DNA of 64,000 nt from Clostridia bacterium (GCA_030637025.1 DAOVVV010000008.1:5802-69801), one strand, 5' to 3'. Shown: positions 397-59,888, numbered from the stretch's first letter. The notes: a model not told the origin generated them from the sequence alone. Program-made: numbers and translations.

Positions 397-429
397 AAAA
401 CCAAAAAAAATTAAAAGGAGGAAAAAGAA

Positions 430-1761: not shown

Positions 1762-1773
1762 AATAAGGGAGTA

Positions 1774-1824
1774 TATACACAACCTTGGTTTTCTATTTAA
1801 ATAGGGAACCAAGGTGATGTGTTA
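1774..1824. terminator. imperfect long hairpin after glnA (core ccttggtt / aaccaagg)
   Basis: Inverted repeat 13 nt after the glnA stop. No clear U-tract. Confidence 0.3.
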
Positions 1825-1841
1825 TATTAGATTAAACGGTT

Positions 1842-2549: not shown

Positions 2550-2552
2550 AAG

Positions 2553-2702
2553 TGGCAGTCGCAACCTTTAGGTTGCGTTCTCAGAGGAGATTTTCCGCAG
2601 GCTTTAGCCTGCGACTACCAAAAAGGGAGTTATGACACACTCTGTTCGCAGGAATCCATTTTGTCGACGATATCCTGGATTCCCGCTTTCGCGGGAATAA
2701 CA
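2553..2702. repeat. ~70-bp palindromic element (tggcagtcgc-hairpin-hairpin-gcgactacca) followed by REP-like half sites
   Basis: Copies at 4973-5038, 16375-16525, 35596-35627 and 53376-53403. Contains gcaacctttaggttgc and gcaggctttagcctgc hairpins. Confidence 0.6.
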
Positions 2703-2810
2703 ACAATAGGACTTTGGCAATAAATTCATAGTCTTCCGAATATTAAAAAAGGAATATGCTGAAAAATGAAAGTCAGGATCTATCTTGACACTACTTTAGA
2801 AAAAGACAAT

Positions 2811-2839
2811 TTGACAGGTGTTTTTTTTTGATGTATAAT
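2811..2839 (+). promoter_or_regulatory. consensus sigma-70 promoter TTGACA-N17-TATAAT
   Basis: TTGACA at 2811-2816 and TATAAT at 2834-2839. About 22 nt upstream of the 2861 start codon. Confidence 0.6.
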
Positions 2840-2860
2840 GCTTAAAATTTAGGCAGAATA

Positions 2861-3232
2861 ATGATTAATATTTCCATAATCGATAAAGAAAGAAAAGTAT
2901 CCTTACTAATTATTAAAGCCCTTAATGATGCTGGGTATTGCATAAAAAAAATAGATACTGAACAGGAAAAACAAATAATAGAAATAGAAGAGAAAAAAGT
3001 TTCTTTTGAACGATCAGTTAAAGAGCTGGAGGATTTTTTTATCCGCAGTAAAGAAAAAGAGCTTTATAAATTTATTTTAACTGCAATAGAAAAACCTTTA
3101 ATTGAGGATGTTTTAGAAAAATGTAGCGGAAATAAAGTGCAAGCAGCACAAATTTTAGGTATAAATAGGAATACTTTACATACTAAAATTAAAAAGTTAG
3201 GGATTAAAATAGAAAAATGGAAAAAAGAATGA
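2861..3232 (+). CDS. small regulator with C-terminal Fis-type (NtrC C-terminal-like) HTH
   Basis: C-terminal ...NKVQAAQILGINRNTLHTKIKKLGI resembles the HTH_8/Fis motif. No AAA+ or receiver domain. Its stop overlaps the nadE start. Confidence 0.5.
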   Translation: MINISIIDKERKVSLLIIKALNDAGYCIKKIDTEQEKQIIEIEEKKVSFERSVKELEDFFIRSKEKELYKFILTAIEKPLIEDVLEKCSGNKVQAAQILGINRNTLHTKIKKLGIKIEKWKKE

Positions 3233-4905
3233 GAATAGCTCTGGCCCAGATTAATTCTGTAGTGGGGGATTTAGAGGGAAATGTAAATAAAATTGTTCAT
3301 TTTGTGAAAAAAGCGCAAAAATTCAAAGCGGATATAGTAACATTTCCGGAATTAGCTATATGTGGATATCCCCCTGAAGATTTATTATTAAAAGAACATT
3401 TTGTGAAAGATAATCTAAAAGCATTAAATTCATTAGTAAGGAAAATTAGCAATATTGCAGTAATTGTCGGATTTGTAGATAGGGATAAAAAGGGTTATTT
3501 ATATAATGCAGCAGCTGTAATTAGTAAGGGGAAAATAAAAGGAATTTATCACAAGGTCAAGTTACCTAATTACGGAGTTTTTGATGAGAAAAGATATTTT
3601 CAACCAGGCAAAGAATTTCCTTTGTTTGAATTAAATCAGGTTGTTTTCGGAATTAATATTTGTGAAGATATCTGGGAACTAAAAGGAGTAGCGAAATTAC
3701 AGGCGGATGAAGGAGCACAAGTAATTATAAATATTTCCGCTTCTCCGTATTATGCCGGAAAAGAAAATTTAAAAAAGAAAATATTAACTAAGCAGGCAAA
3801 AGAAACAAGAACTTATCTTTGTTATAATAATTTAGTAGGAGGACAGGACGAACTTGTTTTTGACGGAGGCAGTGTTGTTTTTGATTTTGCGGGGAAAGAA
3901 ATAATAAGGGGTAAACAGTTTGAGGAAGATTTAATTATTGCTGATTTGCCAATAAAAAAAATAACAAATAAAATTAGAGGTAAAAAGTGTATTAAAATAA
4001 GTATCCCGGAAAATATTAAAAAACCTGTTTTACCAGAAAGTAAAGTAAAAAAATCAAAACAAATAAATAAAATTTATTCTGCTTTAGTTTTAGGAACGCA
4101 GGACTATATAAGAAAAAATGGTTTCCAGAAAGTAGTTGTTGGATTAAGTGGGGGAATAGATTCTGCTTTAACTGCGGTAATTGCCAGAGATGCAATAGGT
4201 AAAGAAAATGTTATTGGTATTTCAATGCCTTCCCGTTATTCATTAATGGAGACACAAAAAGATGCCCGTATTTTAGCTAAAAATTTAGGGATTAGATTTA
4301 TTACCATATCAATAGAAGATATTTTTAAAGTTTATTTAAGGGTACTGGAAAAGGAGTTTTTAGGGTTAAAAAATGATGTTACCGAAGAGAACTTACAGGC
4401 CAGAATAAGAGGAAATATCTTAATGGCTTTTTCTAATAAGTTTAATTGGCTGGTACTTACTACCGGAAATAAAAGTGAGACATCTGTTGGGTATTGCACC
4501 TTGTATGGTGATATGGCCGGCGGATTTGCCGTAATAAAAGATGTTCCGAAAATAATGGTTTACCGGTTAGCTGAATTTGTAAATGAAAAAGAAAATGAAA
4601 GTTTAATACCGGAAAGTATTCTGGTTCGGGAGCCATCGGCGGAATTGCGGGAAAATCAAAAAGACCGGGATAGTTTGCCTCCTTATACGATTTTAGATAA
4701 AATCATAAAGGGTTATGTGGAAGAAGACAAAAGTTCCAAAAAAATAACTACTAATAAAATCAGTATTGGTACGGTAAGAAAAATTATCCGGATGGTTGAT
4801 AAAAATGAATATAAACGCAGACAATCTTCTCCGGGGATAAAAATTACTTCCAAAGCATTTGGTAAGGACAGAAGATTTCCTATTACTAATAAATATAAAG
4901 AGTAG
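3229..4905 (+). CDS. nadE: glutamine-dependent NAD+ synthetase (nitrilase-like glutaminase domain + NAD synthase domain)
   Basis: MRIALAQIN start typical of the CN-hydrolase domain. The C-terminal half carries the PP-loop SGGIDS. An alternative in-frame ATG lies at 3217. Confidence 0.85.
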   Translation: MRIALAQINSVVGDLEGNVNKIVHFVKKAQKFKADIVTFPELAICGYPPEDLLLKEHFVKDNLKALNSLVRKISNIAVIVGFVDRDKKGYLYNAAAVISKGKIKGIYHKVKLPNYGVFDEKRYFQPGKEFPLFELNQVVFGINICEDIWELKGVAKLQADEGAQVIINISASPYYAGKENLKKKILTKQAKETRTYLCYNNLVGGQDELVFDGGSVVFDFAGKEIIRGKQFEEDLIIADLPIKKITNKIRGKKCIKISIPENIKKPVLPESKVKKSKQINKIYSALVLGTQDYIRKNGFQKVVVGLSGGIDSALTAVIARDAIGKENVIGISMPSRYSLMETQKDARILAKNLGIRFITISIEDIFKVYLRVLEKEFLGLKNDVTEENLQARIRGNILMAFSNKFNWLVLTTGNKSETSVGYCTLYGDMAGGFAVIKDVPKIMVYRLAEFVNEKENESLIPESILVREPSAELRENQKDRDSLPPYTILDKIIKGYVEEDKSSKKITTNKISIGTVRKIIRMVDKNEYKRRQSSPGIKITSKAFGKDRRFPITNKYKE

Positions 4906-4972
4906 TGAAAGTGTCAAAAAAGGAATGGCAAGAAAAACAGAAAGAAGTTTGTAGATAAAGAGAAAATCGGGG

Positions 4973-5038
4973 GGTAGCCGCAGGCTTTAGCCTGCGTTAT
5001 CGTTGGAGATTTTACGCAGGCTAAAGCCTGCGACTACA
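4973..5038. repeat. palindromic element copy (ggtagccgcaggctttagcctgcg...cgcaggctaaagcctgcgactaca)
   Basis: Same architecture as 2553-2620. Two internal 16-bp hairpins flanked by inverted ends. Confidence 0.6.
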
Positions 5039-5109
5039 AAAACAGAAATCAGAACAGAAATATGCAGATATTTTTGACAATACTAAAGGAATATTGAAAG
5101 AGATAAAAA

Positions 5110-8100
5110 ATGAAAAATACATTTTTTCCTAAAAAACAAGGATTATATGATCCACAATTTGAAAAGGATTCCTGTGGTGTAGGATTTGTGTGTGATATAA
5201 AAGGCAGGCAATCTAACGAAATGTTGCATTTGGGGATACAATCTCTTAATCGCCTCCTACATCGTGGTGCTACCGGCGCAGATCCTGAAACCGGAGATGG
5301 TGCGGGTATTCTTATTCAAATCCCCGATGAATTTTTCCAAAAAGAAACTCAAAAAATAGGAATTGATTTACCCCCATTAGGTGAATACGGTACAGGTTTA
5401 ATATTTTTACCTCCGGATAAAAAAGAGCGGCAGTTTTGTAAAGATATTTTTACAAAAATAATCAAACAGGAGCAGCAAAAACTTTTAGGATGGCGCAGGG
5501 TTCCGGTGGATGATTCCAGTATCGGTAAAACTGCCCGCCAGACTCAACCGGTGATTGAACAAATTTTTATTGCTAAAGACCCGAAGGTCAAAAAACAGAT
5601 ATATTTTGAAAGGCGCCTTTATGTAATTAGAAAACAGATAGAAAATATTATTCGTGCTTCTAATTTAAAACAAAAATCATATTTTTATGTTAATAATATT
5701 TCCTCTCGTACTTTTGCTTATAAAGGGCTATTAATTTCTAATCAATTGGAAAACTTTTTTCTGGATCTTAAAGATAAAAGCTTAAAAACCGCTCTTTGTT
5801 TAGTACATGCGCGCTATAGCACCAATACTTTTCCTACATGGGATTTGGCTCAGCCATTTAGGTTCTTAGCTCATAACGGAGAGATTAATACCTTACAGGG
5901 TAATATTAATTGGATGCGGGCCAGAGAAGGTTTACTACAAAGTGAAGTGTTTAGCGATCAAGATATTGAAAAAATAAAATCCATAATTGTTCCGGGTGGA
6001 AGTGATTCTGCAACTATTGATAATGTATTTGAATTACTTGCTTTAACCGATAAGTCCCTTCCACATGCGATGATGATGCTTATTCCCGGTGCCTGGCAGG
6101 AAAATAAATTAATGGATAAAAAATTAAAAGATTTTTATAAGTATCATGCCTGCTTTATGGAACCGTGGGATGGACCGGCTGCTATTGCTTTTACGGATGG
6201 GGTTAAAATCGGTGCTGTATTAGACAGGAATGGTTTGCGCCCGGCACGTTATATTGTAACTAAGAAAAATTTTGTGGTTATGGCGTCAGAAGTAGGGGTT
6301 TTAGATATAGCTCCGGAAGATATTCTTTTATCAGGAAGGTTAGAGCCGGGTAAAATATTTTTTATCGATACGGAAAAGGGGGAAATTGTCGAGGATAATG
6401 AAATAAAATTGGAAATGGCAGAAAGGCATCCCTATGGTCATTGGATGAAAGAACAGATGGTTGATCTTGATAAAATGCCGGCAGTTAAAAATACCCAAAA
6501 AATTATGCAGGATAGAGTAACATTTTTAAAAGCCTTTGGTTATACCCGCGAAGACTTAAAGTTTATTATCAAATTTATGGCTGAAAACGGAGAGGAACCT
6601 ACAGGTTCAATGGGGGATGATACCCCTCCTGCAATTTTATCTAAAGAACCGGAGCTTCTTTATAATTATTTTAAACAACTTTTTGCCCAGGTAACTAATC
6701 CGGCCATTGATCCTATAAGAGAAAACTTAGTAATGAGCCTGGAAAGTTATATCGGTTCTGAAAAGAATATTTTAGCAGAGACATCTTTACATTGTCATAA
6801 ATTAAGAGTAAAGAAACCTGTTTTGAGTAACGAAGATTTAGAAAAAATACGCAACATAAAAAAGAATGATCTTAAAACAAAGACTATTTCCGTTTTGTTT
6901 TCCACTAAGAACAAAGATAATAAGGAATTTATAAAAGCCCTGGATAAAATATGTGCAGAGGCAGTTATGGCAATCAAAGAAGGGTATACTTTTATTATTT
7001 TAAGTGACCGGGGTGTTAATAAAGAATATGCGGCAATACCGATTCTTTTAGCTCTGGGGGCCGTACATCATTTTTTAGTAAAAAAGGCTTTGCGTTCTCA
7101 AATTGGAATTATAATAGAAAGTGCGGAACCACGCGAAGTTCATCACTTTGCTCTTCTTTTTGGATACGGTGCTGATTGTATTAATTCTTATTTGGCCTAT
7201 GATGCAATTAAATATTTAATAGATGAGAACCGGATAGAATTAGATTATGATATTGCTTTGAGTAATTATAGAAAAGCTGTTGATAAAGGAATATTTAAAA
7301 TCCTTTCGAAGATGGGGATATCAACCTTACAAAGTTACAAAGGTGCTCAGATATTTGAAGCCCTGGGTTTAAAGGAAGAGATAATTAACAGGTGTTTTTT
7401 AGGAACGGTTTCCCGTATTGGCGGAGCAGGGTTTGATGTTATTATTAAAGAAACTCTTTTGCGCCACGAAAAAGCCTATTCCCAAAAAGAAACAACAACT
7501 TCTTCTTATCTGGATGCCGGTGGTGTGTACCAATGGAAAAGAAACGAAAAGTTTCATTTATGGAATCCCCAGACTATTTCTGCTTTACAGAATGCAGTCA
7601 GACAAAATAGTTATTCCGGGTATAAAGAATTTGCCCGTACGATAAATGACCAATCAGAAAATCCTGCTACTCTACGCAGTTTATTTAAATTTAAAAAAAC
7701 CGGAGCGATACCAATAAACAAAGTAGAACCGGCAGAAAAAATCCTAAAACGTTTTGTTACCGGGGCAATGAGCTTTGGTTCTATTTCCAAAGGAGCGCAC
7801 GAAAGTATTGCTATTGCGATGAATCGATTAGGTGCCCGTTCCAATACAGGGGAAGGGGGTGAAGATCCTGCACGGTTTAAGCCGTCGACTAATGGTAATT
7901 TTAAGCGTAGTGCAATAAAACAGGTTGCTTCAGGAAGATTTGGAGTAACTACGAATTATTTGGTAAATGCTGATGAGTTACAAATAAAAATAGCACAAGG
8001 GGCAAAACCCGGGGAAGGGGGGCAGCTTCCCGGGCATAAAGTAAGCCCGGCTATTGCCCAAATTCGTTATACTACCCCGGGAGTAATTTTAATTTCTCCT

Positions 8101-11132: not shown

Positions 11133-11206
11133 ACAGCGCTGAAAGATAGAAGACACCTAAATCTCTATGGTTACATAGTGCAATTATGGGAAAAAATGGA
11201 TAATTT

Positions 11207-11230
11207 GTCATTCCTGCGAAAGCAGGAATC
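11207..11230. repeat. 24-bp REP-like perfect palindrome gtcattcctgcgaaagcaggaatc (left flank of GIY-YIG ORF)
   Basis: Same palindrome at 317-340, 11542-11565, 16868-16891 and 54038-54061, with variants elsewhere. Confidence 0.7.
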
Positions 11231-11248
11231 TAAAAAAAAAGAATAAAC

Positions 11249-11536
11249 ATGAGAGATTATTATATTTATATATTAGCCAGTAAAAAGAATGGGACATTGT
11301 ATCTTGGAGTTACGAATAATCTTGTAAAAAGAGTATATGAACACAAACAAAACTTTGTAGAAGGATTTACTAAGAAATATAACATTCATAGTTTGGTATA
11401 TTATGAACAGACCAATGATAGCTACAGTGCTATTCAACGCGAAAAAAGGATGAAAAGATGGAAGAGGGAGTGGAAGATAGAATTAATTGAAAGATTTAAT
11501 CCTGGATGGAAAGATTTACATTATGATTTGATATAA
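11249..11536 (+). CDS. small GIY-YIG nuclease family protein (95 aa)
   Basis: YIYILAS...GTLYLGVTNNLVKRVYEH is a GIY-YIG core (YhbQ/UPF0213-like). Flanked within 18 nt and 5 nt by inverted copies of the REP-like palindrome. Confidence 0.7.
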   Translation: MRDYYIYILASKKNGTLYLGVTNNLVKRVYEHKQNFVEGFTKKYNIHSLVYYEQTNDSYSAIQREKRMKRWKREWKIELIERFNPGWKDLHYDLI

Positions 11537-11541
11537 TTATG

Positions 11542-11685
11542 GATTCCTGCTTTCGCAGGAATGACAGAATGGAAAAAGGAATGACAGAATAAGAACAGGA
11601 ATGACCCTCCTTATTCTCCGCCTCAGGCGGATGAGGCGGAACGGAGAGGCACGTAGAATAAGAATAGAATCAGTGCGGAATGATT
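11542..11685. repeat. cluster of repeat modules (REP-like palindrome, ggaatgac repeats, ccgcctcaggcgg palindrome, cagtgcggaatga)
   Basis: Right flank of the GIY-YIG ORF. Its modules are shared with the other repeat loci. Confidence 0.6.
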
Positions 11686-16374: not shown

Positions 16375-16525
16375 TGGTAGCCGCAACCTTTAGGTTGCGT
16401 TATCGCCGGAGATTTTCCGCAGGCTACTTGTTCGCTCCGCCTCAGGCGGATTTGGAGGAAAGCCTGTGACTACCAAAAAGGGAGTTATGACACAGTCTGT
16501 TTGCAAGAATGACGCAGCAAGCTGC
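16375..16525. repeat. palindromic element copy carrying a nested insertion of the ccgcctcaggcgg module (16427-16460) inside its second hairpin, plus a 3' REP-like tail
   Basis: The consensus aggctaaagcct hairpin is split as aggcta[34-nt insert]agcct. The ends tggtagccgc / gtgactacca are retained. Confidence 0.6.
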
Positions 16526-16955: not shown

Positions 16956-18545
16956 ATGAATTTACAACAACCAAATGCAAATGAAGCAATACAGACCTCA
17001 AACCGGTCAAGAAATGTTTCTCCGGTATCGGGACTTTGTACCCGTTGTATTGACGGATGTCGTGGTAACTGCGATGTTTTTAAAGCAACATTTAGAGGAC
17101 GGGAAGTAATTTATCCGGGACCTTTCGGAGATATTACTGCAGGAGGAGATAAAGAGTATCCTATAGATTATTCACATCTTAATATTTTAGGATATGCAAT
17201 GGGTGCGAAGGGACTTCCCGAAGGAGTCGAAGCCGGACCGGATACGGCAACTTTTCCGGCTGTAAAAACTGAAACCGAATATGGTTGGGACAAGAAAGTA
17301 AAACTGAAAGTACCTATTTTTACCGGGGCATTAGGTTCTACGGAAATTGCCCGCAAAAATTGGGAACATTTTGCCATTGGGGCCGCAATTTCCGGGGTAA
17401 CCCTGGTTTGCGGAGAAAATGTCTGTGGAATTGATCCAAAACTCGAGTTAGATGCTAAAGGTAAAGTTAAAAATGCTCCTGATATGGATCGTAGAATCGA
17501 AACTTACAGAAGATTTCACGGCGGCTATGGTGAAATATTAGTTCAAATGAATGTAGAAGATACCCGTCTGGGTGTTGCCGAATATGTGTTAAATAAACAT
17601 AAATTGGAGACGATTGAGCTGAAATGGGGACAAGGGGCAAAATGTATCGGTGGAGAAATTAAAGTAAAAAGTATTGAAAGGGCATTGGAACTCAAAAAAC
17701 GCGGGTATATTGTTACGCCGGATCCAACAGTTCATTCAGTGAAAGAAGCATATAAAGTTGGAGAAATTAAGGAATTTGAACGGCATTCCCGTCTTGGATT
17801 TGTTTCCGAAGAAGGTTTTTTGGCTGAGGTAGAACGTTTAAGAAAAATTGGTTTTAAACGTGTTACTTTAAAAACAGGTGCTTATCCAATGAGAGAACTG
17901 GCCATGGCGATTAAATACTGTTCAATTGCTAATATTGACCTCTTAACCATTGATGGTGCTCCGGGTGGAACAGGAATGAGCCCCTGGAGAATGATGCAGG
18001 AATGGGGTATTCCCACATTCTATTTACAGTCGATGACCCAGGAGATTTGTGAGAAGTTAACTAAAAAAGGAATGCGTGTTCCTGATATTGCTATCGCCGG
18101 TGGTTTTTCTACTGAAGATCATGTATTTAAGGTGCTTGCTATGGGTGCGCCTTATACAAAAGCTGTTTGTATGGGTAGAGCACTAATGATTCCCGGAATG
18201 GTAGGTAAAAATATTGGCCAATGGATGAAAGAAAACAACTTACCCAAAACAGTTTCTCAATATGGAAAGACAGCAGAAGAAATCTTTGTTTGTTATGAAG
18301 AGCTGGTTGATGAATATGGGAAAGACATGAAAGATATTCCATTAGGTGCTATTGGTATTTATTGCTTTTCACAGAAAATAAAAGTAGGGCTACAGCAATT
18401 AATGGCTGGTACCCGAAATTTTAAACTTTCAACTATTACCAGAAAAGATGTTACCGCTCTTACTCAGGAAGCAGCTAAAGTATCGGGAATACCTTATGTG
18501 ATGGACGCTTATCGTCAGGAAGCAGAGGCTATTCTGGAAGGTTAA
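16956..18545 (+). CDS. glutamate synthase FMN-binding domain-2-like protein (archaeal-type standalone GltB subunit) with N-terminal 4Fe-4S Cys cluster
   Basis: N-terminal Cys-rich CTRCIDGCRGNC motif, GltS FMN-domain signature and a glycine-rich FMN/phosphate loop. Confidence 0.7.
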   Translation: MNLQQPNANEAIQTSNRSRNVSPVSGLCTRCIDGCRGNCDVFKATFRGREVIYPGPFGDITAGGDKEYPIDYSHLNILGYAMGAKGLPEGVEAGPDTATFPAVKTETEYGWDKKVKLKVPIFTGALGSTEIARKNWEHFAIGAAISGVTLVCGENVCGIDPKLELDAKGKVKNAPDMDRRIETYRRFHGGYGEILVQMNVEDTRLGVAEYVLNKHKLETIELKWGQGAKCIGGEIKVKSIERALELKKRGYIVTPDPTVHSVKEAYKVGEIKEFERHSRLGFVSEEGFLAEVERLRKIGFKRVTLKTGAYPMRELAMAIKYCSIANIDLLTIDGAPGGTGMSPWRMMQEWGIPTFYLQSMTQEICEKLTKKGMRVPDIAIAGGFSTEDHVFKVLAMGAPYTKAVCMGRALMIPGMVGKNIGQWMKENNLPKTVSQYGKTAEEIFVCYEELVDEYGKDMKDIPLGAIGIYCFSQKIKVGLQQLMAGTRNFKLSTITRKDVTALTQEAAKVSGIPYVMDAYRQEAEAILEG

Positions 18546-18585
18546 TTTTTGGAGAAAAAACCTGAAATTGAAACTTTAATTTAAT

Positions 18586-18616
18586 CGGGGTAACTGGATA
18601 GTATTCGGTTACCCCG
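18586..18616. terminator. 9-bp stem hairpin cggggtaac / gttaccccg after the 16956-18545 gene
   Basis: Inverted repeat 40 nt after the stop codon. No U-tract. Confidence 0.25.
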
Positions 18617-18746
18617 GTAATATGTATATTAAGATAGTAGACATTGATTTGTTTCCTCTGGTTGCCATTGTTTGTTTCTGACCGTTATTTATTAAATATT
18701 TTCACCTAAAATATAATCAATTCTTAGCAAGCAAAGGAGAAAACTT

Positions 18747-19460
18747 ATGAATTTGTTATTGTTTTTAGTTACTCTTATTGTATCTTTTATTGTGATAAAA
18801 ATAGGTGCTATTGCTTTTCAATTGACCGGGTTAGAATGGTCTTTAGCTCAATTTCAAGCTTTATCCTGCTTTACCGGAACCGGTTTTACTACCAAGGAAT
18901 CAGAACTAATTACCGGTAATCTTCAAAGAAGACGCATTGCTTCTGTTCTTATTATTTTGGGTTATGCCGGATTAGTTACCATAATTGTCACTTTTGCTAA
19001 TTCTTTAAGGCCGTCTCCTACCTTTGATGTTCCTTTTTTATCCTCATTTTTTTCGCCGGGGGTGTTACCATGGATAAATTTCGTTATCATCATTATCTCT
19101 GTATATATTATTTATAAAATCGCTACTTACGCTAAATTTACTAAACGATTAACCGATATTTTAAGAGCGCGTATGGTAAAAAAAGAAATTATTAAAGCGG
19201 TATCCTTTGAAGAATTAATGGTTGCTACAGGTGGTTACGGAGTATCCAGCATAGAAATTTGTAAGGGCAGTCCTATATTAAATAAAACTATGATTGAAGC
19301 GGCCTTAAGAAAACAGGATATTACAATTTTGGCCATAGAGAGAGCAGGGGAAATAATTCCTAATCCTTCTGCAAAAATTAAATTTCTTTTAGGTGATAAA
19401 CTGGTGTGTTTCGGAAAGTTAGAAAATATTAGAACTAAGCTGTGTTTAATCCCTGAATAA
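18747..19460 (+). CDS. 2-TM pore-loop cation-channel-like protein with C-terminal TrkA-C (RCK_C) domain and an atypical TGTGF filter
   Basis: TM1, then a pore-helix-like WSLAQFQALSCFTGTGFTT, then TM2, then a RCK_C-like domain (GSPILNKTMIEAALRKQDITILAIERAG). Confidence 0.45.
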   Translation: MNLLLFLVTLIVSFIVIKIGAIAFQLTGLEWSLAQFQALSCFTGTGFTTKESELITGNLQRRRIASVLIILGYAGLVTIIVTFANSLRPSPTFDVPFLSSFFSPGVLPWINFVIIIISVYIIYKIATYAKFTKRLTDILRARMVKKEIIKAVSFEELMVATGGYGVSSIEICKGSPILNKTMIEAALRKQDITILAIERAGEIIPNPSAKIKFLLGDKLVCFGKLENIRTKLCLIPE

Positions 19461-19511
19461 ATTTCAAAAAACAATTAACCTCCCCACAAAAAGCTATGGG
19501 GTATCAATCAA

Positions 19512-19590
19512 TGTCACTCCTGCGAAAACAGGAGTCTATCCCTGTAGATTCCCTCCTTCGCGGGAATGACGCAGCAAGCTGTGGGAAATT
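19512..19590. repeat. REP-like palindrome variants (gtcactcctgcgaaaacaggagtc; gattccctccttcgcgggaatgacgcagcaagctgtgg)
   Basis: The shared tail gaatgacgcagcaagctg also occurs at 16505-16522. Confidence 0.55.
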
Positions 19591-19610
19591 AGCCACAAAA
19601 AGAAATTAAA

Positions 19611-20627
19611 ATGAATGACAAAAATATTAATGATTGGGAAAATTTAAAAGATGAGGAATTACTGGATTTTCGACTTTGTGATTTTCATTTAAATATTAAG
19701 GGAACAGAGCTGGAAATTTATGTACAACAACTTTATCGGGAACTTACCCAAAAAAATATCATTTTTCATCCTGCCTGTTATTTAGCAGATGAATGGCTCT
19801 GTCCTGACCTGGAGCCGGTAATTGGAATTCCTTTCTATCTGGCTCATCCCCGTTTAAAAAAAATAGAACATAAAATAATGCTGGATGTAGAGGGGGAAAC
19901 AAAATCTTCCTGTATGCGCCTTTTAAGGCACGAAGCCGGACATACTATCAACTATGCTTATCGTTTATACCGAAGAAAACGATGGAAAGAATTATTTGGT
20001 TTGTTTTCTAAAGACTATCCGGAAAAATACCGCTTTCGGCCTTATAGCAAAGGTTATGTGCGACATTTAGAAGACTGGTATGCTCAGTATCATCCTGATG
20101 AGGATTTTGCTGAAACCTTTGCTGTATGGCTGACTCCTAAAAGTAAATGGAGAGAGGAATATCTCGGATGGAAAGCCCTGGAAAAACTGGAATATGTTGA
20201 TCATTTAATGAAAGAAATCAGCAATAAACAGCCCTTAATAAAAACAGGTAAAAAATTATGGCAGGTTTCCCGGCTGACATTAAAATTAAAAACTTATTAT
20301 CGACGAAAAAGGAAACTTTACGAAGAAGAATACCCGGATTTTCATGATTCCAATCTTAAAGAAATATTTTGTCCTACCGTAACTGCCGGAAAAGCATCAT
20401 CATTTTTAAAACATCATCAAAAACAAATCTTAGATAATGTTTCTATGTGGACCGGAGAAAAAAAATATATAATCAATCGTATTATAAAAGATTTAATTAA
20501 ACGTTGTAATGAATTAAATTTATATACCGGAAATAACGAATGTAATACAGTTTCTAAAGTAACGGCTTACATAACAACATTAATTATGAATTATCTTTAT
20601 ACCGGAGGATTTAAAAAAAGACGATGA
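19611..20627 (+). CDS. putative zinc metallopeptidase-like protein (HEAGH ... E zincin motif), function unknown
   Basis: HEAGHTINYAY with a downstream DEDFAETFAVW. Forms an operon with the following ATP-grasp gene (4-nt overlap). Confidence 0.5.
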   Translation: MNDKNINDWENLKDEELLDFRLCDFHLNIKGTELEIYVQQLYRELTQKNIIFHPACYLADEWLCPDLEPVIGIPFYLAHPRLKKIEHKIMLDVEGETKSSCMRLLRHEAGHTINYAYRLYRRKRWKELFGLFSKDYPEKYRFRPYSKGYVRHLEDWYAQYHPDEDFAETFAVWLTPKSKWREEYLGWKALEKLEYVDHLMKEISNKQPLIKTGKKLWQVSRLTLKLKTYYRRKRKLYEEEYPDFHDSNLKEIFCPTVTAGKASSFLKHHQKQILDNVSMWTGEKKYIINRIIKDLIKRCNELNLYTGNNECNTVSKVTAYITTLIMNYLYTGGFKKRR

Positions 20628-21640
20628 GAAAAAAATTAAAAATTTTAGTTTTATTTGATAGTGCCGGTTCTCCGCCACCGGACCAGAATTTCAAGGAAGC
20701 GTTAAAAACGGAAGGATGGGAAACAGAAGCAGAAGTTATTAATACTCTAAAAAAATTAAGCTATGAAGTAAGGATATTAGGAATTTATGATGATGTAAGT
20801 TTAATTATCAAAGAAGTTGAAGAGCATAAACCAGATGTAGTTTTTAATCTGGCTGAAGTTTTTTTAGGTAAAGCTCGTTTTGACAAAAATGTCCCTTCTA
20901 TTCTGGAAATGTTACCAATACCTTATACCGGTTCAGGCCCGGTAGGTATGATGTTATGTAACAACAAAGCAATTAGTAAAAAAATACTAACTTTTCACCG
21001 GATTAAAGTACCCGGTTTTTATGTGTTTCAGAGAGGAAAACGCATATGGCAACCTAAAAAATTACGCTTTCCTCTTATCGTTAAACCTTTACGAGAAGAA
21101 GCTTCTACAGGCATTGTTCAGGCTTCTTTTGTAGAAAATGAAAAGGAACTTTGTGATAGAGTCGGATTTACTCACGAACAACTTAAAATGGATGCTATTG
21201 CCGAAGAATATATTGAAGGCCGTGAATTGTATGTAAGTATTCTGGGCAGTAAAAAATTAATGGTTTTTCCTTTGCGTGAGATAAAATTTACTCAAGTAAA
21301 TGATAATGAACATAAAATAGCTACTTATAAAGCAAAATGGGATGAAGAATATCGAAAAAAATGGGGCATTAAAAATGAATTTGCCGGGCGTCTTCCTGCG
21401 GATATCCCGGAAAAAATAGAGGAAATTTGTAAAAAAGCCTACCGGGTTTTACAACTCCAGGGATATGCCAGATTTGATATAAAACTGACTCCGGAAAATG
21501 AAATTTTTATTCTGGAAGCAAATGCCAATCCTTCACTGGCCCCGGATGATGAATTTGCCTTATCTGCGGAAAAGGCAGGTATTTCTTATACGCAGTTAAT
21601 CCGGAAAATATTGTATTTTGCTTTCAAACGGAACAGATAA
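20624..21640 (+). CDS. ATP-grasp family ligase (D-alanine--D-alanine ligase-like)
   Basis: Ddl-like N-domain. The ATP-grasp motifs EEYIEGRELYVSILG and FDIKLTPENEIFILEANANP are present. Confidence 0.7.
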   Translation: MRKKLKILVLFDSAGSPPPDQNFKEALKTEGWETEAEVINTLKKLSYEVRILGIYDDVSLIIKEVEEHKPDVVFNLAEVFLGKARFDKNVPSILEMLPIPYTGSGPVGMMLCNNKAISKKILTFHRIKVPGFYVFQRGKRIWQPKKLRFPLIVKPLREEASTGIVQASFVENEKELCDRVGFTHEQLKMDAIAEEYIEGRELYVSILGSKKLMVFPLREIKFTQVNDNEHKIATYKAKWDEEYRKKWGIKNEFAGRLPADIPEKIEEICKKAYRVLQLQGYARFDIKLTPENEIFILEANANPSLAPDDEFALSAEKAGISYTQLIRKILYFAFKRNR

Positions 21641-21760
21641 AAGATAAAGACGGTGCATTGGTTATATTGGTTTCTATTGGTTAGATTGGTTGAAAGATAA
21701 AAGAGAAAAGACAGGCATCCGCCTTAAAGATTGGCGGACTTCCGTTTTGCTTCAGCAGTC

Positions 21761-22135
21761 GATAGTCCATAGACAACAAACAACAGAAAGTTATAAGTTA
21801 ATAGTTATGAGTTATAAGTTAAAAGAAAATTGAAAGACAAGAATAAAAAACAGGCACAAAGGCATCAAGGCACAGAGGCACAAAGTAAAAGACAAGACAA
21901 CAGATAGTCCATAGACAACAAACAACAGAAAGTTATAAGTTACTAGTTATGAGTTATAAGTTAAAAAAAAATTGAAAGACAAGAATAAAAGACAGGCACA
22001 AAGGCATCAAGGCACAGAGGCACAAAGTAAAAGACAAGACAACAGATAAAAGATAAAAGAAAGTTATTAGTTAATAGTTATGAGTTATAAGTTAAAGAAA
22101 TAAAAAACAAAGACAAAGACAAAAGAAAAAAGACG
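21761..22135. repeat. tandem array: two full 142-bp units (21761-21902, 21903-22044), a degenerate third, and a degenerate unit upstream
   Basis: Units are more than 95% identical. Each contains an 8-bp-periodic AGGCACAA x4 sub-repeat and a gttataagtta sub-repeat. The + strand is strongly T-depleted. Confidence 0.8.
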
Positions 22136-22145
22136 GGAGAATATA

Positions 22146-22481
22146 ATGTTTTGTCCAGAGTGTCGAGCTGAATTCATAGAGGGAATAACCGTTTGCAGTG
22201 ATTGTGGAATTACCTTAGTCGAAGAATTATCTCCCCAGCCAAAACCGGAATATCATAAATTAGTGAAAGTTTTTTCCACCGGAAAAAGTATCGAAGCGGG
22301 ATTTGTTAAATCATTGTTAGAGGCAAATGAGATTAATTGTTTCATTAAAAATATGCATTATCCTTCGCTTATACCTGTAGGAATTGCAGCTGTTCCGATA
22401 AAAATAATGGTAGAAGAAAAAGACAAAGTTAATGCGGAAGAAATTATTAATCAATATTATAAAGATTTGAAAAACGAGTAA
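22146..22481 (+). CDS. zinc-ribbon (CPEC...CSDC) protein with C-terminal DUF2007-like domain
   Basis: N-terminal CxxC-x11-CxxC. The C-terminal LVKVFSTGKSIEAGFVKSLLEANEINCFIKN resembles the DUF2007 pattern. Confidence 0.5.
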   Translation: MFCPECRAEFIEGITVCSDCGITLVEELSPQPKPEYHKLVKVFSTGKSIEAGFVKSLLEANEINCFIKNMHYPSLIPVGIAAVPIKIMVEEKDKVNAEEIINQYYKDLKNE

Positions 22482-22583
22482 GAATATTTTTGGGAAATAA
22501 TAATTTTTATAATTTTATTGGTTTTTATAAATAGGGTATATAATTTAATAATATAAGACTTGTATAGATATAGTGGGAATAAA

Positions 22584-23945
22584 ATGAACAATAATAATTT
22601 GCGTGATAAAAATAATAATTTCCATTTAATTAATGGAAATATTCATAAAAGCGTACTTTCCATAGCTTTGCCTTTGATAGTTGTGAATACCTTTAATATT
22701 GCCCTGGAACTTATTGATGCCTTTTTTGTGGGGCGTTTAGGTGCGGAAGCACTGGCGGCTATTGCCCTGGCCAGTGTGATAATGTTTTTTTTAGCCACTT
22801 TTGGAATAGGTTTAGGAATAGGGACAATAGCTTTGGTATCTGCTGCCTTTGGAGAAGGAGACTTTGAAAAGGGAGATAAGATTGCCCTGCAATCTTTATA
22901 TTTAGGGATAGTCGTTTCGCTTGTTTTAGGAGCACTTGGTTTCTTCTTTTCGCCATGGTTGCTAAATTTTCTGGGAGCAAAGGGGAATGTTCTCATAATC
23001 GGGAGCAAATATCTTAAAATTTTATTTACGGGAATATTGGCAATGTTTTTTATGTTTTTGGGTAACGCTGTTTTTCAGGGAGCAGGGGATACTAAAATCC
23101 CGATGAAAATCGGAGCGATAACAGTCATAATAAATATTATACTTGATCCGTTAATGATATTTGGGTTGTTAGGTTTTCCGCGACTGGGAATTTCCGGAGC
23201 AGCATGGGCTACAGTTATAGCACGTACTATAGGTGGTATAATAATGCTAAGTATTTTTTTTAGAGGGAAACATTTGGTACAAATAAAATTAGATGATTTA
23301 GGTTTGAATTTTAAAATAATTAAGAAAATATTATTGATTGGTTTTCCCGGTTCTATTCAAATGTTACTGAGAAGCTTTTCAGCCGTGGTACTAATTAAAA
23401 TAGTTGCTGTGTTTGGCACTACCGTAATAGCTGCTTACGGAATAGGGGGGAGAATATTTCATTTTTTTCTTTTGCCCGGGTTTTGTTTTGGCGGGGCAGC
23501 AGCGACTTTAGTGGGACAAAATTTAGGGGCAAAAAATCCTCACCGAGCTTACAAAAGTGCTTTGTTATCTTCTTATTATTACCTTGTATTTTTATTAATA
23601 AGCGGCACAATTGTTTTTATTTTCTCTTCTCCCATCGCTGCTCTTTTTAATCCGGATAAAGAATTTGTAAAGGTTTGTTCCTTATTTCTTAAATATCTGT
23701 CGGTTGGCTCTGTTTTTCTTAGTTCCGGGGTAGTATTTTCCCGGGCATTACAAGGAGCAGGAGATACAATTTCTCCGATGTTAATGACCGGACTTTCTTT
23801 GTATATATTTCAAATACCCCTTGCTTATTTTTTGTCTACGCATTTAAGATTTAACGAAAGAGGCATCTGGATGGCCGGTCTGATAGGAAGTCTTATCCAT
23901 GGATTATTAATGGCCGTTATTTTTTTAAATGGTAAATGGAAATAG
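22584..23945 (+). CDS. MATE family efflux transporter
   Basis: 12 predicted TM segments in duplicated halves. The ORF-track start at 22560 is a TTG; ATG 22584 is more likely. Confidence 0.8.
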   Translation: MNNNNLRDKNNNFHLINGNIHKSVLSIALPLIVVNTFNIALELIDAFFVGRLGAEALAAIALASVIMFFLATFGIGLGIGTIALVSAAFGEGDFEKGDKIALQSLYLGIVVSLVLGALGFFFSPWLLNFLGAKGNVLIIGSKYLKILFTGILAMFFMFLGNAVFQGAGDTKIPMKIGAITVIINIILDPLMIFGLLGFPRLGISGAAWATVIARTIGGIIMLSIFFRGKHLVQIKLDDLGLNFKIIKKILLIGFPGSIQMLLRSFSAVVLIKIVAVFGTTVIAAYGIGGRIFHFFLLPGFCFGGAAATLVGQNLGAKNPHRAYKSALLSSYYYLVFLLISGTIVFIFSSPIAALFNPDKEFVKVCSLFLKYLSVGSVFLSSGVVFSRALQGAGDTISPMLMTGLSLYIFQIPLAYFLSTHLRFNERGIWMAGLIGSLIHGLLMAVIFLNGKWK

Positions 23946-24007
23946 CGAAAGGTTGGAGTGAAAATAAATTAAATTATAATATAATTTAATTTTAAAAAAA
24001 ACATAAA

Positions 24008-25279
24008 ATGTTTAAAAAATTCTACGATGTAATTGTAATTGGCGGCGGTGCTTCAGGAATGTTTGCTGCCGGATGTGCAGCAGCTAAGGGTGCTGATACT
24101 CTCTTGTTAGAAAAAACTAATCAATTAGGTAAAAAATTAAGCATTACCGGAAAAGGCAGATGTAATCTTACTAATATTGGCGAGGTAAATGATTTTATTG
24201 AAAGTTATGGAAAAAACGGCAAATTTTTATACCGGTCTTTTAAAAACTTTTTCAACCAGTCTTTAATTGCCTTTTTTAATAGTTATGGTATTGAAACGAA
24301 AGTAGAAAGAGGAGGAAGGATTTTTCCGGTTAGTGATAATTCTGAAAGCATTGTAAATGCTTTAAGAAATTATCTTAAAGAAAACAAAGTGACTTTAGGT
24401 TTAAATCTACAAGTTAAAGAAATTGTACTTGGCGACAATAAAACAGATAGAAATAATAAAGTCATAGGAATAAAACTAAGTGAAAGAAAAGAAATTATAA
24501 AAACAGATAAAGTTATTCTGGCTACCGGCGGACTTTCTTATCCTAAGACAGGGGCTACCGGAGATGGGTACCGAATGGCAAAGAAATTAGGGCACAGTAT
24601 TGTTTCTCTTACGCCGGCACTGGTGCCTTTAGAAACTAAAGAAGATTTTGTTAAAGACTTACAGGGATTAGCCTTAAAAAATGTCAGTGTTACTGTTTTT
24701 ACTAACGGCAGGAAGATTGGTGAAGACTTTGGTGAAATGTTATTTACTCATTTTGGTCTTTCAGGTCCGATTATATTAAAAATGAGTAGTTTAGTCATTG
24801 AACATTTAAACAAAAACCAAGAAGTAAGTATTGTAATTAATTTTAAACCCGCATTAGATGAAAAGAAGCTTGCAGACCGATTATTACGTGAAACTAAAAA
24901 TTTTGGTCTTAAATCAGTCAATAATGTAATGAAAAATTTCCTTCCCCGAAAACTTGTTCCTGTCTTCCTGAAATTAGCTAATATAAATACTGATAAAAAA
25001 TTCAAACAAATCACTCATCAGGAAAAAGAAAAAATAATCAATCTTTTAACTAATTTTAGTTTAAAAATAACTAAATCCAGACCAATTGATGAAGCTATTA
25101 TTACCAAAGGAGGGATTTCTTTAAAAGAAATCAATCCTTACACTATGGAATCGAAAAAAATTAAAGGGCTATATTTTTGTGGAGAAATAATTGACCTTGA
25201 CGGTAAAACCGGAGGATATAATCTGCAGTTAGCCTTTTCTACCGCACACCTTGCCGCACAATCAGCATTCAACCCTTGA
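24008..25279 (+). CDS. HI0933/YhiN-family FAD-dependent oxidoreductase
   Basis: N-terminal DVIVIGGGASGMFAA Rossmann motif. Its length and C-terminal GGYNLQLAFSTA are typical of the family. Confidence 0.8.
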   Translation: MFKKFYDVIVIGGGASGMFAAGCAAAKGADTLLLEKTNQLGKKLSITGKGRCNLTNIGEVNDFIESYGKNGKFLYRSFKNFFNQSLIAFFNSYGIETKVERGGRIFPVSDNSESIVNALRNYLKENKVTLGLNLQVKEIVLGDNKTDRNNKVIGIKLSERKEIIKTDKVILATGGLSYPKTGATGDGYRMAKKLGHSIVSLTPALVPLETKEDFVKDLQGLALKNVSVTVFTNGRKIGEDFGEMLFTHFGLSGPIILKMSSLVIEHLNKNQEVSIVINFKPALDEKKLADRLLRETKNFGLKSVNNVMKNFLPRKLVPVFLKLANINTDKKFKQITHQEKEKIINLLTNFSLKITKSRPIDEAIITKGGISLKEINPYTMESKKIKGLYFCGEIIDLDGKTGGYNLQLAFSTAHLAAQSAFNP

Positions 25280-25454
25280 CATAAGATAAAGTAGAAATAT
25301 ATAATATTACACAGAATAAAAATATTATCTAAAAAAAAGAAGATATTTTCTCGATTTAAAAAAAAACACGACTAAACTCCTTTCCTTTATAAGTATCGGG
25401 AAGTAATAAAAATAGATAAGGATTTTAAAAGATTCGACTTTGAGGGTTTTAAAA

Positions 25455-26591
25455 ATGGCCTGGATTCAAAAAACTTTAGATATAAACGAAAAACTTTCAG
25501 TTTTATCACATGATTCACAATACGATCTGGCATGTTCCTGCAGTATAAATGATGATGATCGCCGGCATCGCTCAAAAGAGGACAAGTGGATATATCCGGT
25601 TACTTTTCCTAATGGCGGCCGGTCTTTTTTGTTTAAGACTTTAATTTCTAATGTATGTGTTAATGATTGTAAATATTGTCCTTTGCGTGAAGGACAGAAT
25701 ACCAGAAGATGTACACTGCAGGCATATGAACTGGTAAAAGCCTTTCTTCAGTATTATCAAAAAGGTAAAGTGATGGGGCTTTTTTTAAGTAGTGGCGTAA
25801 TGGGTAATCCCGATAAAACAATGGAGCAAATAAATAAAATTGCTCTTATTTTAAGAAAAAAACATTTTAAAGGATACATTCATCTAAAAGTTATTCCCGG
25901 TGCTTCTAATGCAGCGATAGAGGAAACTGTTTCTTTAGCCAGTGCAGTTTCAATAAATATCGAAACTGCCGGCGAAAAGAATTTTAACCAACTTTCTAAC
26001 AGCAAAAACTATTTACAGGATATTATTAGGCCGCTTAAATTAATCAGCCGGCTTACCGGAAAAGGTTCTCGTTATAGTAGAGTAAAAAAAACGACGCAAT
26101 TTGTGGTTGGTGCATCTGAAGAAACTGACCAGGAAATTATTAAATATTCCTGGAACTTATACCGGCGATTGGGTTTAAACCGTATTTATTTTAGTGCTTA
26201 TCAACGGGGTTTAGGCGAACCTGATTTACCCGGGGAGATTTCCGGTCAAAGCAATAATGATATTTTAACTCGAGAGCATCGTTTATATCAGGCGGATTGG
26301 TTAATCAGAAAATATGGTTTTACGGAAAAAGAAATTCTTTTTCAAGCTGATGGTAATTTATCATTGACTCTGGACCCCAAGGAAACTTGGGCTAAGAATC
26401 ATCCGGAATTTTTTCCGGTTGATATTAATAAAGCAGATAAGTTAAAATTACTACGGGTCCCGGGTTTAGGATTGGTTACCGTTAATTATATACTTAAATA
26501 CAGGGAAAAGGGTGGATATATTCGTTATCTGGAAAACTTAGGAAAATTAGGAAAAAGACTGATCAAGGCAAAACAGTATTTAAAAATTTAG
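25455..26591 (+). CDS. radical SAM protein with C-terminal helix-hairpin-helix (putative DNA modification/repair radical SAM family)
   Basis: CVNDCKYC (CxxxCxxC) and a C-terminal LLRVPGLGLVTVNYIL HhH. No partner gene lies adjacent. Confidence 0.65.
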   Translation: MAWIQKTLDINEKLSVLSHDSQYDLACSCSINDDDRRHRSKEDKWIYPVTFPNGGRSFLFKTLISNVCVNDCKYCPLREGQNTRRCTLQAYELVKAFLQYYQKGKVMGLFLSSGVMGNPDKTMEQINKIALILRKKHFKGYIHLKVIPGASNAAIEETVSLASAVSINIETAGEKNFNQLSNSKNYLQDIIRPLKLISRLTGKGSRYSRVKKTTQFVVGASEETDQEIIKYSWNLYRRLGLNRIYFSAYQRGLGEPDLPGEISGQSNNDILTREHRLYQADWLIRKYGFTEKEILFQADGNLSLTLDPKETWAKNHPEFFPVDINKADKLKLLRVPGLGLVTVNYILKYREKGGYIRYLENLGKLGKRLIKAKQYLKI

Positions 26592-26595: not shown

Positions 26596-26735
26596 ACTTC
26601 TGCGGAATGACACATTCTGTCATTCCGCTCCGCCTCAGGCGGATGATGCGGAATCTATAATATTCTTAAATATCAATAAATTCCTGCTTCCGCAGGAATG
26701 ACAATAAAAGGAAAAAGGTTGTTTTGCAGAACTCT
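26596..26735 (+). mobile_element. MITE-like composite repeat copy (5' TIR agacttctgc, 3' gcagaactct)
   Basis: The 5' TIR is an exact reverse complement of the canonical 3' end. Its 3' end lies 30 nt before the 26766 ATG. Confidence 0.6.
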
Positions 26736-35496: not shown

Positions 35497-35730
35497 AGAG
35501 TTCTGCAAAATAACGCATTCTGTCATGCGGAATCTGTAATGTGTTTAAAATATCAATAGATTTCTGCTTTCCAGACTGTGTCGCAATCCCTTTTTTGGTA
35601 GTAGCAGGCTTTAGCCTGCGGCTACCACATGAAAATATGAGTTATGACACAGTCTGTTCGCAGGAATGACTTGCCTTATCCGCCAGTCTTTAAGGCGGAG
35701 CGGGCAGGCAAACTACTTCGCAGAAAGATT
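35497..35730 (+). mobile_element. MITE-like composite repeat (5' TIR agagttctgc) with the short palindromic element (35596-35627) and ccgccagtctttaaggcgg module nested inside
   Basis: Largest copy (~235 bp). Its 3' end lies 30 nt before the 35761 ATG. Confidence 0.55.
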
Positions 35731-35760
35731 AAAAAATAAACTAAAAGGAGGAAATTAGTA

Positions 35761-35937
35761 TGACAAAACCTGTAAGTGATTTGATTAAAGCAGTATTTAG
35801 AGTTCTGGCTTTTTTGGGCCTATATTTTTTAATAGCCGGTACATTGCTAAATACACTGGCTCTAATTTTAATCGGAGGAGTATTAATGACTGCAGGAGCA
35901 GTCCTCGGTTGGATGAATGAAAAAATAGAAAAATAGG
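35761..35937 (+). CDS. small membrane protein (58 aa)
   Basis: AAAAGGAGG RBS and one or two hydrophobic helices. Confidence 0.35.
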
Positions 35938-36173
35938 AACTAATTTCCTGGAATGATTAAATTTATTTATATAAGTCGGAATATAAAAAATTGGGATGTA
36001 AATGCCAGGAAATAATTGTGTATTGTCAACACTGCCCGGAGTGTGACCGATAGTAGATCATTGGCAAAATTGGGTTTTAAAAGGGTTAAAACCTGGTGGT
36101 AAAATTATTACCTGGAAAAAAGTAGGTCTTTAAGTCATATCCGGAGGAAAGCAAGATTAGAGAAGAACAAATT

Positions 36174-46728: not shown

Positions 46729-46757
46729 ATTTTTTAGAAAACAAAAAGGAGGAAAAA

Positions 46758-46967: not shown

Positions 46968-47025
46968 AAGTTGAATAAATTTAACGCAAGTTTTTTTTAA
47001 CCGGGAATAAATAAACATAAGCAAA

Positions 47026-59875: not shown

Positions 59876-59888
59876 TTTTTAGTAAAAT

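Follow-up and report, generated by a model that had tools for sequence, protein, structure and literature searches.

Does the tandem array between two genes of an uncultivated bacterium carry a function of its own, or is it a by-product of repeat turnover in an operon spacer? The question is raised by a stretch of 64,000 nucleotides (GCA_030637025.1, DAOVVV010000008.1:5802-69801, labeled Clostridia bacterium; hereafter the window), in which a 142-bp tandem repeat lies downstream of a D-Ala-D-Ala-ligase-like ATP-grasp gene and upstream of a zinc-ribbon/DUF2007 gene. The preliminary description of the locus had the array filling a gap of about 500 bp before the gene at 22146, and the distance from the ATP-grasp stop (21640) to that start is indeed 505 bp. 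The array is probably a hypervariable composite simple-sequence repeat (SSR), produced by slippage, unequal recombination, and ectopic copying, that inflates the spacer and is passively tolerated.

The array was detected by Tandem Repeats Finder (TRF) as a period-142 repeat at 21761-22048 (2.0 copies, 97% matches, score 555) that extended over 21768-22100 with 2.4 copies and outscored every other tandem repeat that TRF found in the window by a wide margin. Two full composite units were delimited on the + strand: unit 1 (variant A; 21761-21902), recovered by TRF, repeat search, and nhmmer, and unit 2 (variant C with 41C, 65A, and 89G; 21903-22044), recovered by TRF and repeat search. The units are identical at 139 of 142 positions and differ at unit positions 41, 65, and 89, placing the earlier figure of more than 95% identity at 98% (3/142 mismatches). 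Each block follows the module order TAGTCCA, five AGTTATN heptamers, an A-rich spacer, four AGGCACAN octamers, and AAGACAA. The heptamers form a + strand array of 5.4 copies at 21788-21825 with sister arrays at 21930-21963 and 22062-22094 (TRF period 7), reaching 4.9-5.4 copies in the full units and 4.7 in a partial unit to their right; a pattern search for AGTTATN returned nine matches, all in the array spacer, compared to 0.18 expected from shuffles. The octamers form + strand arrays at 21852-21883 (4.1 copies) and 21994-22027 (up to 4.2 copies; both TRF period 8) and their 32-nt block AGGCACAAAGGCATCAAGGCACAGAGGCACAA occurs exactly twice, a count reached by none of 100 shuffles (0.00 expected). 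The 8-nt period earlier attributed to each unit is thereby borne out.

A degenerate unit had also been proposed on each side, which held well for the right flank and more weakly for the left. On the right, a partial third unit (22045-22100, +) keeps the AGTTATN array, lacks the AGGCACA array, and aligns to the full unit over 64 nt at 83% identity, with a local alignment score of 80 compared to a null of 26 ± 4. It is followed by an AAAGAC/AAAGAAA short-period array (22094-22133, +; TRF). On the left, an A-rich segment of 28 nt, TTGAAAGATAAAAGAGAAAAGACAGGCA (21690-21717, +), is homologous by local alignment to unit positions 69-96 (score 29 vs. a null of 16 ± 2.6; the score was reached by 2 of 300 shuffles). 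Repeat search further revealed an exact 17-nt direct repeat, AACAGATAAAAGATAAA (21632-21648 and 22041-22057, +; 100% identity), whose left copy overlaps the ATP-grasp stop codon and whose right copy spans the start of the partial third unit. The left flank also shares the layout of the units in that a short-period array, here ATTGGTT(N2-3) with 3.8 copies (21657-21691, +; TRF period 9, score 47) in the place of AGTTATN, precedes the A-rich spacer. Arrays of different words, namely ATTGGTT, AGTTATN, AGGCACAN, AAGATAA, and AAAGAC, were identified by TRF within 505 bp. Repeat search found no inverted repeat within the 142-bp unit or at its ends. A separate hairpin, TCCGCC-N9-GGCGGA (21718-21738, strand not assigned), appeared in both the minimum free energy and centroid folds and is a member of the repetitive extragenic palindromic (REP)-like family REP_e, which has four sites in the window (339, 21719, 35680, and 53969); it is at best a weak terminator and was not called by the terminator scan.

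The array is also extreme in composition, with 54% A and 16.6% T over 21761-22145 and, in the 300-nt segment starting at 21832, the highest purine (73.7%) and A (55.7%) contents of the 64 kb. Stretches of more than 60 nt almost free of T had been described on the + strand. The poverty in T was confirmed, as 60-nt segments with three T or fewer are confined to the two full units, while runs entirely free of T reach at most 40 nt (22102-22141, mostly within the AAAGAC/AAAGAAA array), such that the described length is slightly overstated. With 39 C compared to 62 G, the array does not look like a Rho-loading site.

A genome scan with the ATP-grasp protein identified only three close species representatives (91-93% identity), with the next matches at 55-58%, and CarB identity was 92-93% within the clade, then 67-68% to Planctomycetota-labeled metagenome-assembled genomes (MAGs). 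Judged by these protein identities, the host is a sparsely sampled, deep-branching uncultivated lineage. The same gene order of Peptidase_Mx, ATP-grasp, DUF2007, and MATE genes was found in relative L219 (ATP-grasp 78% and DUF2007 75% identical), where the ATP-grasp-DUF2007 spacer is 29 bp without repeats and the DUF2007-MATE spacer is 31 bp. Because of these short spacers, a tight operon is the simplest ancestral state, and by this comparison the array is an expansion of an operon spacer rather than an ancestral 5′ untranslated region (UTR). A further DUF2007 homolog with a 7-bp upstream gap (L222) follows a gene other than ATP-grasp and was not used for the ancestral spacer.

In four close species (ATP-grasp 91-93%), the same spacer holds clusters of 6-10-nt arrays that differ in words, order, and length (~290 to ~750 bp). 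These include ATTGGTT, AAATTC/AAATACT, and TTTGAAG-type arrays in L016/L220, with extra DNA 3′ of the arrays in L016; ATAGTCC (4.6 copies), AGTTATA (5.7 copies), and AGTCCAT (4.3 copies) in L017; and AGTCCAT, AGTTATA (twice), TTTGGGA, AGACGAC (5.9 copies), and AAAGACA arrays together with a miniature inverted-repeat transposable element (MITE) in L216/L018, for a total of 751 bp. The 142-bp periodicity was found in none of the close relatives' spacers. Conservation across the relatives was limited to the last ~25 nt, AAAGAC(A/G)GGAGAATATAATG (the AGGAG...ATG end), such that the single part of the spacer kept in all of them is the Shine-Dalgarno region. In the window, this region contains GGGAG at 22135-22139 (+; 6 nt 5′ of the ATG, read from the sequence) in the position where relatives have AAAGACAGGAGAATATAATG.

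At 5040-7130 in L017, the ATP-grasp and DUF2007 genes are additionally separated by a 593-aa beta-propeller gene of secreted type, whose product has SBBP repeats and a weak C-terminus similar to CHU_C/T9SS (type IX secretion system). The gene is bracketed by near-identical ATAGTCC arrays of 4.6 copies, and an AAATNC...AAACACATTT region is duplicated 5′ of both the 593-aa gene and the DUF2007 gene. This arrangement suggests that the gene was inserted or deleted via recombination between the arrays.

A copy of the unit was also identified at a second locus. An nhmmer search of all retrieved sequences with unit 1 revealed a homolog in a non-orthologous spacer, the one that separates carB from a glutamate-synthase-like gene (L216 4086-4200; E=2e-11, unit positions 3-135). 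The module order equals that of the window unit (TAGTCCA, four to five AGTTATN, A-rich spacer, four AGGCACAN, AAAGACA). The copy lies inside a 332-bp insert (4074-4405) with imperfect A-rich duplications at its ends, whose flanks abut at position 7655 of the related strain L224, and the orthologous carB spacer of the window likewise lacks the insert. The empty site in L224 and the homologous L216 copy therefore point to copying of the block between spacers within the clade. In the window, the AACAGATAAAAGATAAA 17-mer does not bracket the whole expansion. Short-period arrays of at least three copies cluster in just two spacers across ~132 kb of lineage DNA.

Searches for functional signals were negative. 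Folding of either strand was no better than that of shuffles (z = -0.34 and -0.70), no Rfam match was found at the gathering threshold in the whole window or at E≤1 in 21500-22300, and no tRNA or tmRNA was detected by scanning. No sigma-70-like site was found on the + strand of 21641-22145; other spacers of the window carry textbook TTGACA-N17-TATAAT. No intrinsic terminator was found inside the array on the + strand, and three terminator-like matches lie in the upstream gene or on the minus strand. A Csr/Rsm-type sponge was rejected based on zero GGA motifs in 21761-22100 and no structure beyond shuffles, and a small RNA (sRNA) sponge with a local partner on the lack of + strand TGTGCCT within 64 kb. 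Along with the 29-bp ancestral spacer, these results speak against the long structured or sponge 5′ UTR that had been suggested. The suggested protein-binding array is likewise made less likely, since sister species hold different words in a different order at the same spacer, which speaks against a set of sequence-specific sites; and a link to the supposed signaling domain of DUF2007 was without support, as the gene occurs without repeats in L219.

Several further candidates were tried and rejected. A coding region or remnant was not supported, the sole open reading frame (ORF) of at least 40 aa being a non-conserved 47-aa TTG ORF and the heptamers carrying TAA/TAG stops. The 8-nt period of the AGGCAC octamers gives a GG-to-GC spacing of 9 or 17, which differs from that in a sigma-54 -24/-12 element. 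A template/variable repeat (TR/VR) pair of a diversity-generating retroelement was dismissed because the annotated neighbors (16956-26591) include no reverse transcriptase, neither copy is coding, and the differences show no specificity for A. A tandem array of sRNA genes such as NsiR1 was not consistent with units without promoter or terminator. A phage or mobile origin was examined using a 23-nt pattern of the AGGCACA array (22 specified bases plus one N), which gave no exact match in IMG/VR.

The observed repeat anatomy, short ancestral spacer, turnover among relatives, dispersed copy, and absence of structure or promoter signals are consistent with a stepwise expansion. In this scheme, the spacer of the Peptidase_Mx, ATP-grasp, DUF2007, and MATE operon would have grown from ~30 bp to >500 bp, beginning with seeds such as ACAGATA and AAAGACA from the native A-rich spacer and the ATP-grasp 3′ end that replication slippage would have amplified into 6-10-nt arrays. 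The last ATP-grasp codons, AAC AGA TAA, double as the start of the first repeat. Ectopic recombination or other mobilization may then have carried copies of array blocks from one A-rich intergenic region to another, a step proposed because a sister species has a homolog of the unit at a second locus, and one 142-bp block would have been duplicated head to tail by unequal recombination, presumably recently since the units are ~98% identical. Most likely, the array is transcribed passively along with the operon, forming an unstructured, purine-rich part of the mRNA that is not translated, and it would have no dedicated sequence-specific function. It may be tolerated because it lacks hairpins, T-runs, a sigma-70 promoter, and a C-rich/G-poor Rho-loading tract. 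The expected consequences would be translation of DUF2007 uncoupled from the upstream gene, a hypervariable locus, and a recombination-prone site.

Some observations weigh against this scheme. Neutrality is an argument from the absence of signals. All copies are in one orientation with the A-rich strand as the sense strand, which could reflect selection at the RNA level, although arguments from orientation are confounded by the replication/transcription strand bias of the region (+ strand genes and an A/G-rich sense strand). The same spacer keeps short-period arrays in four species, a persistence that a purely neutral model accounts for only by assuming a mutational hot spot at this site. Were the REP_e hairpin to stop transcription, expression of DUF2007 would depend on a promoter within the array; none was found there, such that either read-through or an unrecognized promoter must exist.

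Similar repeats have been reported in distant bacteria. TAACTGA direct repeats occur in the Beggiatoaceae, 15 cyanobacteria, and 5 Bacteroidetes (MacGregor, 2015; PMC4679880), including “larger assemblages of heptamer repeats” in spacers, assemblages that recur almost unchanged at two loci, spacers that are short and repeat-free in close relatives, and contigs ending in heptamer repeats (PMC4679880). Their suggested roles, which are proposals only, are translational control via S1/Csp/CsrA-like proteins and genome rearrangement (PMC4679880). The window array shares with these assemblages the intergenic 7-nt tandem units (4.7-5.4 copies in three arrays), the juxtaposition of different words, near-identical blocks at more than one spacer, a short repeat-free spacer in a relative (29 bp in L219), and contigs terminating within the repeats. 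AGTTATN is moreover a reverse-complement rotation of TAACTNA, and AGTTATC is the reverse complement of the TAACTGA repeat. In contrast, the window word reads TAACT(T/A/C)A on the minus strand (variable + strand base A, T, or G) and never TAACTGA; the arrays are reverse-oriented to the downstream gene, with the last AGTTATN array ending 51 nt before the ATG; they are packed, along with an 8-nt array, in a tandemly duplicated 142-bp higher-order unit; and the host belongs to an unrelated deep-branching uncultivated lineage.

Heptameric SSRs in general are more frequent than expected in the intergenic DNA of bacteria (Rehm et al., 2015; PMC4692102). In close relatives they keep their place between the same genes but differ in length and sequence, for which polymerase slippage was suggested as the cause (PMC4692102). 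The GGGAATC and GGGGAYT SSRs of Xanthomonas and Nostoc are G-rich and capable of forming G-quadruplexes (PMC4692102), which the A-rich window array with its isolated GG cannot. The window unit also resembles variable-number tandem repeat (VNTR) or minisatellite loci in its head-to-tail units of ~100-150 bp with ~98% identity and a copy number that is hard to assemble and probably variable, but it differs in being itself made of microsatellite-like arrays and in that variation between strains is only a candidate. The short tandemly repeated repetitive (STRR) heptanucleotide families of Calothrix and Nostoc, reportedly described by Mazel et al. in 1990, are said to be tandem, non-coding, and without an assigned function. 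Tandem heptamers of several families in non-coding DNA are common to both cases, compared to which the ~100 STRR sites per genome contrast with two spacers in ~132 kb here and the words are different. Pneumococcal BOX elements are modular, with a variable number of internal modules, and dispersed in intergenic positions in operons. The window unit is similarly modular, intergenic in an operon, and accompanied by a dispersed copy; unlike BOX, REP, and MITE sequences, it has neither a stable hairpin nor inverted termini, and only the separate REP_e hairpin qualifies. The best reading is that the array belongs to the known, poorly understood STRR/TAACTGA-type heptamer-assemblage kind.

A metagenome scan with AGTTATNAGTTATNAGTTA identified at least 120 loci with AGTTATN arrays, ranging from 17 to 53% GC among the 80 that were retrieved. 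Most of these 80 carry intergenic AGTTATC or AGTTATG arrays, often beside other heptamer arrays, and their tandem arrays numbered 197 of period 7 compared to 36 of period 6 and 28 of period 8, an excess partly due to the selection criterion. A heptamer vocabulary beyond AGTTATN shared with the window lineage (ATAGTCC, ATTGGTT, AAAGACA, TTTGGGA, and others) was rejected, as only one contig of the 80 (L100) shares AGGCACA and AAAATTC. This contig (Ga0214473_10017856) encodes a dcw operon (mraY, murD, ftsW, murG, murC, and murB; 340-7010) of a Thermodesulfovibrionia-like source, with MurC 90% identical to such MAGs. It has 7-8-nt arrays at every gene junction examined, in-frame heptamer arrays in the murD ORF (GTTGCGT and ACTCATA, each 4.4 copies; 6585-6662), and a ~130-nt composite of AGGCACAG in three copies plus its inverted copy, duplicated at 2840-2975 and 5345-5480. 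The words AGGCACA and AGTTATG are shared with the window lineage despite the unrelated phylum.

An unlikely alternative is that the block is a non-autonomous mobile or recombinogenic element of a new, small, dispersed kind that enters A-rich spacers, where it would favor rearrangements and the insertion of genes. The homologous copy at a non-orthologous locus and the clean empty site in L224 would be expected of such an element, as would the exact 17-nt direct repeat in the window, the imperfect A-rich duplications at the L216 insert ends, the 593-aa gene between two ATAGTCC arrays in L017, the extra DNA beyond the arrays in L016, and the similar ~130-nt composite with AGGCACAG arrays in two spacers of the unrelated Thermodesulfovibrionia contig. 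However, the block has no terminal inverted repeats or stable hairpin, no transposase or recombinase lies nearby, just two loci were found in ~132 kb, and the 17-mer fails to bracket the insert as a whole. The data are accounted for equally well by microhomology-mediated ectopic recombination.

It is unlikely, at slightly longer odds, that the arrays act post-transcriptionally as multivalent sites in the operon mRNA for a single-strand RNA-binding protein (S1-, Csp-, or other OB/KH-type) that tunes DUF2007-MATE translation or stability. The unstructured, A-rich, sense-strand RNA suits such proteins, its motifs are multivalent (five NAG-N4 and four AGGCA), arrays persist at the spacer in four species, and such a role was proposed for the TAACTGA heptamer repeats (PMC4679880). 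Yet the words and their order are not kept between sister species, GGA motifs are absent, and L219 runs the operon without repeats. The distance of 51 nt from the nearest AGTTATN array to the ATG and its orientation, reverse to the TAACTGA case, also argue against this role, and the canonical conserved Shine-Dalgarno sequence means that no alternative ribosome recruitment is needed.

A related and rather improbable idea is that the 142-bp block represents an undescribed class of small elements composed of 7-8-nt arrays without hairpins or inverted termini, which would spread between A-rich operon spacers as multivalent binding platforms for single-strand RNA (or DNA) or as recombination hot spots. 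The recurrence of AGTTATG and AGGCACAG in the Thermodesulfovibrionia would then be explained by a common trans-acting factor or by horizontal spread and not by coincidence.

The number of units bears on the remaining alternatives. The same locus was found by exact-protein look-ups in other samples of the same study, and the unit-to-unit junction is present in assemblies of at least three further samples (L001, L002, and L013). Three unit variants were distinguished, namely A, B (41C, 65A, and 72A), and C (41C, 65A, and 89G). The window has the order A-C-partial and other samples have A-B-... or ...-B-partial; in one sample, A-B and C-partial occupy two different contig ends, which requires at least three units or a strain mixture. 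Two scaffolds contain a 100-N gap inside the array, one sample has a contig ending inside the array and a second contig starting inside it, and seven short contigs (six from Logan and one from ENA) begin at varied points in the last or partial third unit, the behavior expected at a de Bruijn branch. Assemblies break or carry gaps in the array spacer in every species having arrays. The repeat is not an assembly artifact, and the window shows either a minimum number of units or a collapsed array, the copy number being at least two and possibly three or more.

The suggestion of a copy-number-variable locus was accordingly plausible as regards the variants A, B, and C, the N-gaps, and the contig breaks, but nothing links copy number to downstream expression. 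A contingency (phase-variable) locus, in which the number of 142-bp units or 7-8-nt sub-repeats switches or tunes DUF2007-MATE expression, is very unlikely. Although three variants exist, unit number differs or is ambiguous within one population, and sub-array copy numbers vary between relatives, the repeats neither space a promoter element, as no sigma-70-like site is present, nor lie in a credible ORF as in known contingency loci. The downstream genes are also not the surface or restriction-modification genes usually phase-varied, and the apparent variation is inseparable from short-read assembly collapse. That mis-assembly created the duplication is extremely improbable, since the near-read-length period of 142 bp, the scaffold N-gaps, and the contig breaks cast doubt on copy number only and not on the existence of the repeat, whose junction and distinct variants were independently recovered in the window and at least three other samples and assemblers, with de Bruijn contigs ending at differing points in the last or partial unit as for a real repeat.

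The genes around the array are all on the + strand. The Peptidase_Mx gene (19611-20627) overlaps by its stop the start of the ATP-grasp gene by 4 nt, and the latter (20624-21640, 5′ of the array) was identified as an ORF with a Pfam Dala_Dala_lig_C match (E=9e-29). The zinc-ribbon/DUF2007 gene (22146-22481, 3′ of the array) encodes 111 aa with an N-terminal CxxC...CxxC motif and matches to Pfam PF09413 (E=1.2e-13) and NCBIfam DUF2007_rel, and is followed by a MATE transporter gene (22560-23945; NCBIfam matE). Nearly all real-looking ORFs of at least 100 aa in the window (1-64000) sit on the + strand, cumulative GC skew rises steadily across the profiled part (20000-24000), and across the genome the sense strand is rich in A and G (A 35.5%, T 30.1%, G 20.4%, and C 14.1%). 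Short ORFs with a good Shine-Dalgarno sequence, which fell below the 100-aa listing threshold and were noticed while reading spacers, occur in “intergenic” gaps at 35700-36000, 46740-46990, 55146-55375, 57435-57510, and 59740-59900, and include a glutaredoxin-like ORF at ~55146 (MEIKIYSTPTCPYCK...) and small hydrophobic peptides.

Most long spacers of the window contain short GC-rich palindromic REP-like elements of at least five families, with the cores CCTGCTTTCGCAGGAATGAC (8 sites), CGCAGGCTTTAGCCTGCG (5), CCGCCTCAGGCGGA (4), GCAACCTTTAGGTTGC (2), and CCGCCAGTCTTTAAGGCGG (4). The families often occur in fixed combinations that resemble MITEs with GACTGTGTCATAA-type ends, for example at 319, 2561-2613, 4979-5032, 11207, 11546, 11617, 12941, 16383-16450, 16873, 19513, 26629-26702, 35603-35698, 40918, 53377, and 53969-54059. 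One 95-aa GIY-YIG nuclease ORF (11249-11536; Pfam E=4e-13), within 11205-11567, is bracketed by inverted copies of a REP-like hairpin (left TTGTCATTCCTGCGAAAGCAGGAATC and right GGATTCCTGCTTTCGCAGGAATGACAG) belonging to an element with 8 window sites. The layout recalls REP elements flanking a REP-associated tyrosine transposase (RAYT), with a GIY-YIG enzyme in its place.

The importance of the array is modest. It extends heptamer-repeat assemblages to a deep-branching uncultivated lineage and, with the metagenome contig, to the Thermodesulfovibrionia. Copy numbers from short reads, including that of this window, should not be trusted, and the locus would serve as a VNTR-type strain marker. The clade also provides a natural experiment in which the same operon has either a 29-bp or a >500-750-bp unstructured spacer, usable for questions of polarity and translational coupling.

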